A stretch of 40,883 nt of DNA, from the UHGV virus genome UHGV-0848487. One strand, 5' to 3'. This stretch comes from a virus. Each line of letters begins with the position of its first letter. The first letter of the stretch is position 1. A program made the translations under genes and the position numbers. The notes below the pieces were generated by a model. That model ran no database searches. It saw only the letters and a program-made list of their open reading frames with translations, and was not told the origin of the DNA. Of the stretch, positions 1,809 to 40,883 are shown piece by piece.

Positions 1809-2372
1809 TCATGCGGTTACGGTAGCCGCTTGAGGGTATACGCCACCAAAGTTAGCCCCGGAGCTATCCCGCATAATCTGAACGGCAAACGTCTGGCCTG
1901 CGGTTGGGCTAATAACAACGCGGGACTCGATAGGAATTGTTATGTCGGCGCTTACCAGCTTAGTTGCTGCGGGAGAGCCGTACTGAGCACCGTTTACTAA
2001 AATACGTGATAGCAGGATTGATGTCCCACTAGCGCCAGTACGCCCCGCCTGTAACTTGATGCGAACGGCGTAGTTACCCGCGGTGTTGAATGTAACAAGC
2101 CCTGCGGCATTAATCATTACCGGGTTAGACGCGCCTCCCTGCGCAGCCCCGAAAGTTAACTGTAACGCTGTATCTACTGCGGTAGGCGCTTGCGCCACGG
2201 TTGACGTGGCACGGAGAACTTCTACCTCTTTAACACCGGATGCAGCGTAAAGCATGGAGTCCGCTAACTGGGTATTTACCTCGCGCAACAACTCAGGGGT
2301 TATAGCGCCAGTTGTATTATCGGCGAGATTTGTCCCGATAAGGGTGAACATCTCTGTTTTAGTCTTCGCCAT
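1809..2372 (-). CDS. structural protein, hypothetical (head/neck region)
   Basis: 187 aa ORF, A/G/T-rich, within late operon. Confidence 0.3.
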   Translation of the reverse strand: MAKTKTEMFTLIGTNLADNTTGAITPELLREVNTQLADSMLYAASGVKEVEVLRATSTVAQAPTAVDTALQLTFGAAQGGASNPVMINAAGLVTFNTAGNYAVRIKLQAGRTGASGTSILLSRILVNGAQYGSPAATKLVSADITIPIESRVVISPTAGQTFAVQIMRDSSGANFGGVYPQAATVTA

Positions 2373-2890: not shown

Positions 2891-3058
2891 TTATTCCTCT
2901 GATTTCGCCCGGCGCTGGCGGCGTGGTGTCTCTTCTTTAGCCGATTCTACCACGGTGCCTTCTGGTGCGAAACGAGCATCTACCACACGGAACCCCTGAC
3001 GGTTATACTCGCGCTTCTGCTCGATGGTAATTGGCATTGGTACGTATTTAATTTCCAC
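2891..3058 (-). CDS. small hypothetical protein (55 aa)
   Basis: GTG start at 3056-3058 preceded by GGAGA; stop TAA overlaps RBS of next gene; not in ORF track (under 60 aa). Confidence 0.3.
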   Translation of the reverse strand: MEIKYVPMPITIEQKREYNRQGFRVVDARFAPEGTVVESAKEETPRRQRRAKSEE

Positions 3059-3115: not shown

Positions 3116-4120
3116 TTACCGGTCTGCGTCGGCGATTGCCAGAGTACCGAGGGTGTGCTTGTTCTCGGCAACAGCTTTGCCCCAGTTAGTCGCGGTGAAC
3201 AGTTCTGCGTCCAGCGGAGATTTACCGCCGTTGGTAACGTCCCAGCTGTAGCCTTTCAGTTTCAGGCCGAAGCTGTAGTCCGCCTGCCAGGTGGTCTGGA
3301 TGCGGGTGTTACCGTTGCTGGTGTCAATGTTGCTGATAATGTCAGAAGCATTATCAACGATGATGCCGTTCGCAACTACGGACAGAACCTTAGTCTTGTT
3401 CGGGCTGCCAGCTTCGTACGGAACCTTAGTCTTGTTCGGGCTGCCAGCTTCGTACAGCGCAGGGATGTCGGAAATTACGTAACGCTTGCCGAGAACATCG
3501 ACAACCATAACGTTGCCAGCAACGAACAACTGGTTTGCGTTGGTCAGCGCTTTGTCCACCAGAGTGTGGTAGGCCGCGCCGGTCATGATGTCAGTGACCA
3601 ACAACTGAGACTGGTCGCCGAATTTAGCGTGGCTGTTGTTCAGCACGTTCAGGGACAAGCCAGCGGTCGCGGATACATCGTTAACCAGTGCAGTCTGACC
3701 GGATACCGCGGCAACGGCGGCACCAACAGCGGTGTTAAGCTGGTCAGCTAACAGTGCGTCAGAGAACCCTTCGGAGATAGCACGAATCGCGCTCGCCGGG
3801 TCTTCGTTCAGCCAGGTCATTTGCGCAGGCTCGAACAGTACCGGTCCGAAGCCGCCAGCGACTTTAACGCCTACATGCTCGCCCTGAGTCAGCGCGGTAG
3901 CTGCCTGAGACGCGATAGTGGCGTAACGGTCAACGCGGCGTTTAGCGGAGGCAATCTGGTTAAAGAAAGACTCACGGGAGAAGTCACCGCGCCATGAAGC
4001 GGTAGACAGTACAATTGCGCCACCGGAGGCTGCGTTAAACTGGTCAGTTTTCTGGCCAAGCAGTTCGATAGTGGTACCGACGATATCGTCGTTATAAACC
4101 TTCATATCTGACAGAGACAT
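3116..4120 (-). CDS. major capsid protein
   Basis: 334 aa ORF following scaffold-like gene; followed by terminator; position in head module; contains 36-bp in-frame tandem duplication. Confidence 0.6.
   Translation of the reverse strand: MSLSDMKVYNDDIVGTTIELLGQKTDQFNAASGGAIVLSTASWRGDFSRESFFNQIASAKRRVDRYATIASQAATALTQGEHVGVKVAGGFGPVLFEPAQMTWLNEDPASAIRAISEGFSDALLADQLNTAVGAAVAAVSGQTALVNDVSATAGLSLNVLNNSHAKFGDQSQLLVTDIMTGAAYHTLVDKALTNANQLFVAGNVMVVDVLGKRYVISDIPALYEAGSPNKTKVPYEAGSPNKTKVLSVVANGIIVDNASDIISNIDTSNGNTRIQTTWQADYSFGLKLKGYSWDVTNGGKSPLDAELFTATNWGKAVAENKHTLGTLAIADADR
3384..3455. repeat. 36-bp tandem direct duplication (2 copies, 35/36 identical) inside capsid gene
   Basis: gaaccttagtcttgttcgggctgccagcttcgtacg repeated head-to-tail; encodes duplicated peptide YEAGSPNKTKVP. 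Confidence 0.9.
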
Positions 4121-4126
4121 ATTCTG

Positions 4127-4753
4127 TTATCCTCGTTTGCCGTATTTGGCGTTAAGTTTTTGCTGGATTACGTCCGCACCACCGGCCCCGCCAGTAGAAT
4201 TTTTGTTACCGGAAGCCCCGCCGCCGGTTGCTGCATCTGCTTTAATCAGATGCGAAAATGCTTTGTGCTCACGCAGATACTTTTTAAATTGCTCTGCGTC
4301 GGTGGTGATGACATTACCATCTGCACCTGTGAACTTGGTCACAACGTCATCGCCGTCAAATTCGGTCTTGACCATCATAGCGATAATATCCGCTGCGCTC
4401 TCATCAATCAACATTCCAGACAACTGGCTGATAACTGATTTACGTTCCGCGCCGAGGATACGCTCAGCCATTTTGCTAATCTTACCGTCTTTCTCGGCGA
4501 GTACTGGCTCATACTGACTGCGCAACGTTTTCTCGAATGCCTCAAGTTCGCCGTTCTGTTTTGCGCGTTCCTGTTCGGCTTTCAGCTTCGCATCTGCGGC
4601 TTCTTTCGCGGCAGCGGCGGCAGCTTTCTTTTCAGACAAGAGCTTCTCGTTGTTAGCTTTAAGACCGGATACCAGCGCGTCAACTTCTTCTTTGGTAAAC
4701 GTGGTCTTAGTCTCTTGTTGTTCGATAGTTTCGTCTTTCACTTCTTCGCTCAT
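4127..4753 (-). CDS. capsid scaffolding protein
   Basis: Acidic, Ala/Lys/Glu-rich coiled-coil protein directly upstream of capsid gene; preferred start ATG 4753 (MSEEVKDET) after GGGGA. Confidence 0.55.
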   Translation of the reverse strand: MSEEVKDETIEQQETKTTFTKEEVDALVSGLKANNEKLLSEKKAAAAAAKEAADAKLKAEQERAKQNGELEAFEKTLRSQYEPVLAEKDGKISKMAERILGAERKSVISQLSGMLIDESAADIIAMMVKTEFDGDDVVTKFTGADGNVITTDAEQFKKYLREHKAFSHLIKADAATGGGASGNKNSTGGAGGADVIQQKLNAKYGKRG

Positions 4754-4775
4754 CAGTATGTCCCCTGGACGTTGG

Positions 4776-4794
4776 AATCCGGGCCACCCGGATT
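4776..4794 (-). promoter_or_regulatory. perfect 8-bp stem / 3-nt loop hairpin in scaffold 5' leader
   Basis: AATCCGGG-cca-CCCGGATT about 20 nt upstream of scaffold ATG; no U-tract. Confidence 0.35.
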
Positions 4795-4832
4795 TACATG
4801 TCAAGAATAAATTATTCCAACATACAAGGCAA

Positions 4833-15556: not shown

Positions 15557-15757
15557 TCACACTTCTGGCGGCTCGGGTAACGGCATCCAGTGCGTCACGT
15601 ACTTATCGTAGTGATTCCAGAAAGGCTTTCTCCCGTCATCAGGAACTATGTAATAATCGTGCTGAACTGCGTTATTTAACGTTTCATACACCAGGAACTC
15701 TTTATCCGTATACCCATTACCCGGCAGCATCTCACTACACTTAATCCACTCACCCAT
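15557..15757 (-). CDS. DUF551-like protein (66 aa)
   Basis: C-terminal THWMPLPEPP motif; paralog on the plus strand at 20925..21182 ends ITHWMYLPELPEG. Confidence 0.5.
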   Translation of the reverse strand: MGEWIKCSEMLPGNGYTDKEFLVYETLNNAVQHDYYIVPDDGRKPFWNHYDKYVTHWMPLPEPPEV

Positions 15758-15905
15758 ACCTCACACCTCTTTCAATCAAGGATTGCACACCAGCTTTCCA
15801 CGCCCGCCACGCGAGACGCGTCTTAACGTTCAGGTACTCTTTCTTTGAACCCTTGTTAACCGGCAGACCCTCGACCACAGCCCACCGTTCAAATGCTTCT
15901 CTCAT
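15750..15905 (-). CDS. hypothetical protein (51 aa)
   Basis: ATG 15903-15905 overlapping upstream stop (ATGA); under track cutoff. Confidence 0.3.
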   Translation of the reverse strand: MREAFERWAVVEGLPVNKGSKKEYLNVKTRLAWRAWKAGVQSLIERGVRYG

Positions 15906-16090
15906 ACCAGAACCTCACATTCATCCCGATACGCGAACAATAACGACCCTTTGTACTCAATCATAAAACCATAATGGTTGATGCTGAACGCCGGAAAAAC
16001 ATCACCTACCGAGATACCGAAATCTATAAGCCTGCGGTCAGTTATACGGACAAGCCTGCGGTCAGTTATACGGATTCGCATTAACGGCAA
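15902..16090 (-). CDS. hypothetical protein (62 aa) containing a 24-bp in-frame tandem duplication
   Basis: ORF track; peptide RITDRRLV duplicated. Confidence 0.4.
   Translation of the reverse strand: MPLMRIRITDRRLVRITDRRLIDFGISVGDVFPAFSINHYGFMIEYKGSLLFAYRDECEVLV
16028..16075. repeat. 24-bp tandem direct duplication (2 copies, 23/24 identical)
   Basis: aagcctgcggtcagttatacgga repeated head-to-tail. Confidence 0.9.
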
Positions 16091-16284
16091 CCTCCCTCAG
16101 AGTCGTCGGCACAAGCATCACGATTCGATGCCGTTTTGATTGCCTGTAAGCTATTTAGCATTTGCTGGCTATCCATCGTAATAATTGTAATCCCGTCCGA
16201 TAAATGCACCTCGTAGCGTTCAGCTACGAAATATATTTCCTCGAAATCATGATGTTTCAGTTCTTCAAATAATTCTTCCATCAC
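16081..16284 (-). CDS. acidic hypothetical protein (67 aa)
   Basis: ORF track; early leftward operon. Confidence 0.4.
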   Translation of the reverse strand: MMEELFEELKHHDFEEIYFVAERYEVHLSDGITIITMDSQQMLNSLQAIKTASNRDACADDSEGGCR

Positions 16285-16472
16285 TTCGCCCCTTTGAATT
16301 TAAAATTGTTGCCAATGAGTTTTAAGTTCTCCTCTTCTACGTATATTTGTGAATTTACCCCTCTCACCTTTTGCACGGTCACTACGTACTCACCGGGAAA
16401 TAAATTAGATTTTAATTCAATTATGCCGTGTTCACCGTCGGCGCATTTAACCAACTGACCATTCTTAAACAT
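16281..16472 (-). CDS. hypothetical protein, first gene of leftward early operon
   Basis: Preferred ATG 16472 (MFKNGQLVKC) after AGGAG about 10 nt upstream. Confidence 0.4.
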   Translation of the reverse strand: MFKNGQLVKCADGEHGIIELKSNLFPGEYVVTVQKVRGVNSQIYVEEENLKLIGNNFKFKGAK

Positions 16473-40215: not shown

Positions 40216-40883
40216 TTATGCGTATGTGATACGCTGAATAACAATAGACGACTGGTACTGGTTGCCAGTAGCCTGGCCTTCAATAGACTGAGTGATTGAC
40301 TCAGGTCCTCCAATCTCAGGTGTAGCCGCCGTAAGTTCTGCACGTTTCAAACTGAAAGACATAGCCCCGTTTACCCCAGCCAGAATAGAGTTAATCTCCA
40401 CCTGCTGCTCGTTGATAAACTTCTGAATCATCGCCATGTCGTACAGCTTACCGGAGATGGAGAAGGTGTTAGCTGCTCGGCTACGCTCCACAAACGCTAC
40501 GTTAGTGTTGCCGAGTTCGAACTGTGCGGACGCGCTGTTGTCGTTGGTGATGGTCAGGCTGTCGCAACGCAACGGCGTAGAACCGTCGAACACAGAAACA
40601 TCGACCGAGGAGAATGGCTCATCACCAAAAGTAACAGATGAGAAGTTGGAACCGGTCGGCGGCGTAGTGAGAATCTCCTGTCTGCGACCGATGAATGGGA
40701 AGCTGCCAGTTACCATCGCGTTAACAGCCTGTTCGATGGTAAAACCAGAAACTTCCACGCCTTTGGTTAACGTGTACGCGTCAGTACCGCCGCACTGGCC
40801 TTTGTACCAGGTAAGGATAGAGAACGTCTTACACGTGTTACCGGTTTCCAGCGTGTCGCCGGTTTTAGCCTTACTAGTTTTTG
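40216..40883 (-). CDS. major tail protein, C-terminal part (partial; ORF enters from window end)
   Basis: Minus-strand frame open from 40881 to stop at 40216 (ORF track gives 40216..40758 from an internal GTG); upstream codons translate without stop to the window edge. Confidence 0.5.
   Translation of the reverse strand, partial: KTSKAKTGDTLETGNTCKTFSILTWYKGQCGGTDAYTLTKGVEVSGFTIEQAVNAMVTGSFPFIGRRQEILTTPPTGSNFSSVTFGDEPFSSVDVSVFDGSTPLRCDSLTITNDNSASAQFELGNTNVAFVERSRAANTFSISGKLYDMAMIQKFINEQQVEINSILAGVNGAMSFSLKRAELTAATPEIGGPESITQSIEGQATGNQYQSSIVIQRITYA

Follow-up and report, generated by a model that had tools for sequence, protein, structure and literature searches.

A probable recent tandem duplication of an A-domain β-hairpin in the major capsid protein of a Kagunavirus-type phage

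The SPP1 capsid is a T=7 shell of 415 subunits (PMC6813328). In its major capsid protein gp13, residues V224-F234 form β9-β10, an extra hairpin of the A domain that is absent from HK97 gp5 (PMC6813328). This hairpin is one of just two A-domain elements whose conformation depends on the subunit, and maturation moves it by about 5 Å toward the capsomere centre (PMC6813328). Here we describe a 36-bp in-frame tandem duplication in the major capsid protein gene (3116-4120, minus strand) of the virus genome UHGV-0848487, the whole stretch of 40,883 nucleotides being referred to as the window. The duplicated unit covers what appears to be the equivalent of the SPP1 hairpin. On the balance of the evidence, the duplication is likely to be a genuine and recent event in a complete Kagunavirus-type genome, generated by slippage and tolerated by the phage.

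The duplicated segment of the capsid gene

Tandem Repeats Finder detected the duplication at 3385-3455 with a period of 36, 2.0 copies, 100% matches and a score of 142, and direct reading of the sequence agreed that the period-36 repeat is perfect across 71 nt. On the minus strand, copy 1, which is N-terminal in the protein, occupies 3419-3454 and encodes Y223-P234 (codons TAC GAA GCT GGC AGC CCG AAC AAG ACT AAG GTT CCG). Copy 2 occupies 3383-3418 and encodes Y235-L246, with CTG (Leu) as its last codon and the rest identical to copy 1. The encoded peptides are YEAGSPNKTKV-P followed by YEAGSPNKTKV-L, in the protein context ...DIPAL-YEAGSPNKTKVP-YEAGSPNKTKVL-SVVANG..., and copy 2 runs straight into the A-domain core strand KTKVLSVV. 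The sole mismatch between the copies, located by direct reading, is G at 3420 against A at 3384 (plus strand), which makes the junction codon CCG (Pro) in place of CTG (Leu); the homologous single site in all relatives is CTG or TTG. The initial annotation had described an in-frame 36-bp duplication in the major capsid gene, identical at 35 of 36 nt and adding a repeated 12-residue peptide, and had regarded it as recent. The repeat search, the open reading frame (ORF), the Pfam assignment given below and direct reading of the 35/36 match bear this out, and the interval then given, 3384-3455, was essentially right, being one base off the codon phase.

The number of adjacent exact matches of 35 nt, at any period up to 500, expected in a 40.9-kb sequence of such composition is 1.8e-14. 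Therefore, the 36-bp repeat is not due to chance. The copies lie head-to-tail without a spacer and 20 of 21 relatives are single-copy, as is expected of a tandem duplication. Elsewhere in the same gene, a weak imperfect 15-bp tandem repeat was seen at 3301-3335 (2.3 copies, 80% matches, Tandem Repeats Finder score 42), covering the codons of approximately residues 262-273; this one is probably a chance occurrence.

The gene encodes a protein of 334 aa (322 aa in relatives) with the HK97 fold, belonging to the SPP1 gp13-like family. It matched the Pfam profile PF20036 (Gp13-like) with an expect value (E) of 8.8e-103 and 344.3 bits (cutoff 26.4) over profile positions 1-312 of 313, thereby exceeding the gathering threshold across the full profile length and placing the protein in this family. 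It was also assigned to PHROG 247, major head protein (E 6.2e-62). A phmmer comparison with PDB 8xb6 gave E 4.7e-39, and this PDB entry was identified as the capsid protein of the Acinetobacter siphophage SH-Ab 15497 (tblastn, 100% identity).

Comparison with the capsid genes of related phages, proposed in the initial annotation together with structural modelling, was carried out on GenBank phages with a similar capsid gene. None of the 21 carried the 36 bp; 20 of them had a gene of 969 nt encoding 322 aa, and the remaining one, G AB-2017, had an additional 18 bp. Copy 1 accounts for the 36 nt that all the relatives lack, the placement of the gap inside the repeat being arbitrary, and blastn against two relatives (L001 and L002) showed one 36-nt insertion placed at about 3389-3391. 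The insertion was the sole gap in the blastn alignments to LF7074P3 (5,366 bp, 95.1% identity) and to fKuEco01 (4,787 bp, 97.7% identity). Thus, the assembly is not indel-prone at the capsid locus. The closest DNA was that of fKuEco01, the hairpin of which is one base off each window copy, having ACC (Thr) where both window copies carry the lineage-specific Ser codon AGC. Presence of AGC in both copies indicates that the ACC to AGC substitution preceded the duplication. A single-copy allele that does have Ser in the turn (P0002, 322 aa) was considered as the parent and was rejected, as it uses TCT/TCA rather than AGC and its DNA is about 7% divergent.

An exact-protein look-up of the 334-aa protein in a collection of 15 billion proteins returned no match, and no record in IMG/VR, JGI metagenome contigs, GTDB genomes or GenBank phages had the junction pattern or an allele of such length. 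Literature searches for earlier accounts of capsid tandem duplications or of Kagunavirus capsids gave nothing relevant. The +12 allele is new; the kind of event is already known, and it involves no new mechanism or system.

Structure, conservation and length variation of the hairpin

The window protein was modelled with AlphaFold2 on an alignment of 127 sequences, and a single-copy model was obtained with P0002 as the first sequence. The mean predicted local distance difference test score (pLDDT) and predicted template modelling score (pTM) were 87.7 and 0.85 for the window protein, and 89.1 and 0.86 for the single-copy protein. The models show the long helix (108-140) and the long P-domain strands of the HK97 fold. 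Foldseek returned 219 PDB matches with E <= 0.001, and the best 50 of the 219 were all phage capsid proteins, the best matches being the SH-Ab15497 capsid 8xb6 (TM 0.77-0.82) and SPP1 gp13 6r3a (E 5.9e-12).

In the single-copy model the segment forms a tight β-hairpin with pLDDT 96-98, comprising a strand at Y223-E224, the turn AGSPN at 225-229 and a strand at K230-V237. The duplicated unit thus corresponds to a complete A-domain β-hairpin together with the first residue of the core strand. In the model of the window protein, residues 224-241 are coil and the block has pLDDT 54-66, Y223 is still in a β-bridge and the strand 242-249 is intact. By hhalign (probability 95.7%) the hairpin aligned to V224-F234 of SPP1 gp13, with the turn AGS on DGT, and SPP1 gp13 itself scored against PF20036 with E 1.6e-11. 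On the basis of the model and the profile alignment, the duplicated hairpin is the equivalent of SPP1 β9-β10. A low-confidence coil at 194-211 of the models seems to correspond in position to the SPP1 A-loop (194-207), judging from residue numbering and helix order. The tip of the hairpin is predicted to lie on the capsid exterior.

The duplicated site had originally been described as a possible surface loop. Modelling located it in the A-domain β-hairpin, and this is a complete, conserved element rather than a loose loop; the exposure on the exterior, the other half of that description, may be right. In a survey of 38 IMG/VR loci at 58-96% identity, a less biased sample, 36 had a spacing unchanged from the wild type and retained xG(T/S/A)P(N/D)K as the motif, the exceptions being one of +6 and one of -3. 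The latter (DIPALTDGNNTKVVSLVA), from IMGVR_UViG_3300024520_001684 (L053), has about 60% identity to the window protein and is the sole shortened relative found. Among eight single-copy-length sequences, the ratio of nonsynonymous to synonymous polymorphism (pN/pS, Nei-Gojobori) was 0.078 in the 11 hairpin codons and 0.070 in the gene as a whole; of the 291 other 11-codon windows, 55 were equally or more variable than the hairpin. The hairpin is therefore conserved and not hypervariable. Two other descriptions of the site were considered and rejected: a hypervariable floppy loop, for near relatives, in view of the length and motif kept by 36/38 loci and the pLDDT of the single-copy model, and a site under diversifying selection, in view of the pN/pS values.

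Length variation was examined in the best 120 of 3,357 homologues, taken as database clusters and all having at least 88% identity. Of these, 113 were 322 aa long, two were 317 aa long owing to a different start and five were longer. Every internal indel among the 120 clusters sat in the duplicated hairpin; all were insertions (+2, +3 and +6), with no deletions. This bears out the earlier suggestion of an insertion-tolerant site, and the hairpin appears, from these alignments, to be the sole site of observed length change in an otherwise rigidly conserved protein.

The insertions differed in unit, phase and background. A +2 allele (P0001) repeats KT-KT, encoded by AAGACC-AAGACT, and a +3 allele (P0035) reads AGDTGGTNK and contains an imperfect 9-nt repeat. 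A perfect 18-nt unit gives AGAPNK-AGAPNK (+6) in the cultured Escherichia phage G AB-2017 (KY295895), and another perfect 18-nt unit, in a different phase, gives AGAPNK-TGAPNK (+6) in IMG/VR 3300045988_018086 and UMEM01011907, two independent metagenome assemblies with an identical allele. Three further +6 alleles have a Thr background and partly diverged copies, namely AGTPNK-AGTQNK (P0003), ASTPNK-AGTPNK (P0007) and AGTPSK-TSTPNK (P0027). At the DNA level the insertion alleles are tandem duplications bounded by microhomologies of 1-3 nt or by AAG repeats. In a neighbour-joining gene tree built with the hairpin removed, insertion alleles were interleaved with single-copy alleles. The distinct units, phases and backgrounds point to at least five, and probably seven, independent insertion events, a count to be read with the caveats that the insertion alleles were picked for the tree and that recombination and gene conversion may have contributed.

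The smaller Kagunavirus alleles resemble that of the window in affecting the same gene (92-98% protein identity) and the same hairpin, and in being in-frame, microhomology-bounded tandem duplications. They differ in that they duplicate 6, 9 or 18 nt, that is, the AGxPNK turn or a portion of one strand, whereas the 36 nt of the window take in the whole hairpin and the first core-strand residue, and in that the Leu to Pro change at the junction belongs to the window allele. Kagunavirus phages thus show a series of independent duplications in this hairpin, with the window allele as the largest member. A tandem duplication here had been termed unusual for a capsid gene, which is only partly right, since smaller ones recur at the same hairpin in related phages.

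Origin of the duplication and alternative explanations

Direct reading showed the microhomology CTGT (ACAG on the plus strand) on both sides of the duplicated region on the minus strand. The upstream one (3454-3457) covers L222 and the first base of Y223, and the downstream one (3382-3385) covers L246 and the first base of S247. The two are exactly 36 nt apart in all aligned single-copy relatives and 72 nt apart in the window. We propose that a nascent strand slipped, or switched template, between the CTGT microhomologies 36 nt apart and so doubled the intervening segment. A later substitution would have turned the junction CTG (Leu) into CCG (Pro); alternatively, the join itself may have been imprecise and have given the Pro. 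Since the distal copy is contiguous with KTKVLSVV and the proximal Tyr is beside the DIPAL turn, native pairing is still possible, and the extra 12 residues would form a flexible extension protruding from the tip of the hairpin. A compensatory role is conceivable for the Pro at the junction, since it may stop the KTKV of the proximal copy from taking the place of the distal KTKVLSVV in the core sheet. The duplication would be tolerated because one intact hairpin copy remains, and the variant is best seen as tolerated rather than required. If the capsid is T=7 like that of SPP1, which has a similar genome size, a virion would carry about 415 extended hairpins around the capsomere centres.

A perfect 24-bp tandem repeat (AAGCCTGCGGTCAGTTATACGGAC) was observed at 16028-16074, among very small ORFs. 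This repeat is conserved in relatives and varies in copy number, with two copies in the window and in fKuEco01 and three in K1H, which indicates that slippage operates in the Kagunavirus-type group. With a unit length divisible by three, it overlaps an ORF of 62 aa on the minus strand and one of 36 aa on the plus strand; an in-frame peptide repeat and a protein-binding iteron are both conceivable.

Several observations weigh against a tolerated slippage product. The junction reads CCGT, not the CTGT predicted by simple slippage, and an extra substitution or an imprecise join must therefore be assumed. The +12 allele was seen in a single record across all collections searched. Among 126 diverse family representatives (<=53% identity), the segment between the anchor leucines spans 8-22 residues with a median of 13, and the 25 residues of the window exceed all of them. 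The strong conservation of the hairpin makes a fitness cost of the duplication plausible. The outer-surface location and the accommodation of the extra copy are read from a monomer model, in which this segment has low confidence.

An adaptive expansion, in which the hairpin duplications, including the +12 and the Leu to Pro change, have been positively selected and not merely tolerated after slippage, is an unlikely explanation. The advantages that might be proposed are altered recognition of a capsid surface feature, by a capsid-sensing host defence or by a decoration or adhesion partner, and altered capsid stability or surface properties. It would account for at least five independent insertions at one site with no deletions among the 120 close homologues, and for a junction base change that is non-synonymous and introduces a strand-breaking Pro. 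The diverged copies in the +6 alleles P0003, P0007 and P0027 imply persistence over time, and retention of the hairpin motif down to 58% identity implies a functional contact and hence a possible target. However, insertion alleles are rare (5/120 clusters, 1/21 isolates and 1/38 IMG/VR loci), the substitution pattern described above is devoid of diversifying selection, the hairpin has no known link with a defence system or a ligand, and the short direct repeats in the hairpin DNA (AAG, CTGT) are a sufficient mutational explanation. With respect to defence, tblastn extended the capsid family, at about 25% identity, to HK578, SECphi18 and other Dhillonvirus phages. The CapRel defence system is triggered by a capsid protein from a Dhillonvirus, and it is on this account that capsid-sensing defence is named here as a speculative selective agent.

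An assembly or sequencing artefact, raised as a possibility in the initial annotation, would mean that the genome is single-copy and that the second copy came from the assembler, a chimera or a long-read error. Confinement of the allele to one record, and a near-perfect repeat of the kind that artefactual duplications show, would be in keeping with this, yet we consider it quite unlikely. The copies differ by one base, whereas a duplication produced as an artefact would normally be exact. The unit length is divisible by three, and a 4-nt microhomology that was already there sits at the copy boundaries. About 5 kb around the repeat aligned to two relatives with no other gap, and no terminal direct overlap or other assembly residue was present in the window. 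A 36-bp repeat is far below typical read lengths or k-mers, and the region is therefore not difficult to assemble. Analogous duplications at the same hairpin occur in independent assemblies and in a cultured isolate.

That the allele is real but defective, or a minority variant with poorly assembling capsids captured from a mixed population, is very unlikely: the strongly conserved hairpin length, a +12 beyond every family length, the loss of model confidence in the duplicated segment and the single sighting would suit it, whereas the genome in the window is complete and collinear and its genes on either side of the capsid gene are intact, the additional base change at the junction suggests propagation after the duplication, and a +6 in the same hairpin is viable in the cultured phage G AB-2017.

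We therefore favour a tolerated tandem duplication generated by slippage. If the allele is real, the conserved A-domain hairpin of SPP1-type capsids can double without obvious gene loss, and the +12 allele together with the smaller duplications marks the hairpin as the one naturally insertion-tolerant site in the protein. Kagunavirus phages are in use for therapy research, and the hairpin may offer a position for displaying peptides or attaching tags on such therapeutic phages. The allele would also be a small, clean example of a microhomology-mediated duplication leading to structural variation in a virion protein.

Genome context and comparison with known capsid systems

The window is the genome of an Escherichia coli siphophage that probably belongs to the Kagunavirus group, Guernseyvirinae. 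Its first 25 kb showed 92% identity at 88% coverage to P AB-2017 and 93% identity at 84% coverage to ULINTec2, both classified in Kagunavirus. The capsid gene is 97.9% identical to that of Kagunavirus LF7074P3. The genus criterion of the International Committee on Taxonomy of Viruses is about 70% nucleotide identity over the full length. The start of the fKuEco01 locus maps over both window ends (40564-40869 and 5-1844), from which it follows that the genome is complete and shows a circular permutation with respect to the fKuEco01 record. With positions 1-25000 as query, 21 phage records shared the capsid gene at the DNA level against 123 that matched the region 15700-16400, and K1G and K1ind were absent from the capsid-gene matches. 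The difference in the number of matching records points to mosaicism of Kagunavirus genomes, in which two or more types of head module would occur.

Directly upstream of the capsid gene lies the gene for a head scaffolding protein (4127-4804, minus strand; PHROG 206, E 1.4e-42), an annotation also present in K1H and phiEap-2. A separate scaffolding gene thus adjoins the capsid gene in this head module. The true start of this ORF is probably internal, because the protein of the relatives has 208 aa. Downstream of the capsid gene, past a small ORF of 55 aa, is the gene for the head-tail adaptor Ad1 (PHROG 477, Pfam DnaT_2). The 55-aa ORF (2891-3058, minus strand), directly 3' of the capsid gene, was called in every related contig, belongs to PHROG 16180, a family without an assigned function, and has a basic C-terminus. 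Going by its size and position, its product might be a small protein that is associated with the head or decorates it, comparable with gp12, encoded beside the SPP1 capsid gene. An ORF of 187 aa (1809-2372, minus strand), which separates the head-tail adaptor gene from the tail genes, belongs to PHROG 3614, likewise without an assigned function, and gave a weak, sub-threshold Pfam match to 'Podophage GP4 fiber I protein gp80' (E 0.006); its product may be a head or neck fibre.

SPP1 gp13 (PDB 6r3a) shares with the window protein the PF20036 family, the fold and a hairpin at the aligned position. It differs in having only about 16% sequence identity and a single hairpin, with no duplication described. 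In SPP1 it is the neighbouring A-loop (194-207), and not β9-β10, that binds the decoration protein gp12. The closest solved structure is that of the SH-Ab 15497 capsid (PDB 8xb6, 9k4g), for which our literature search found no describing paper (8xb6). At the aligned position, this capsid protein has one hairpin (ALVSGAAETLRHSTLGL), similar in length to the wild type, and, in contrast to the window protein, shows no duplication, the two having about 30% identity by Foldseek. The I-domain of the P22 coat protein illustrates that the A domain of HK97-fold proteins can hold extra polypeptide without disruption of the lattice. Insertions of the I-domain type are ancient, fold independently and comprise about 100 residues, whereas the window carries a recent 12-residue duplication of a hairpin that already existed.

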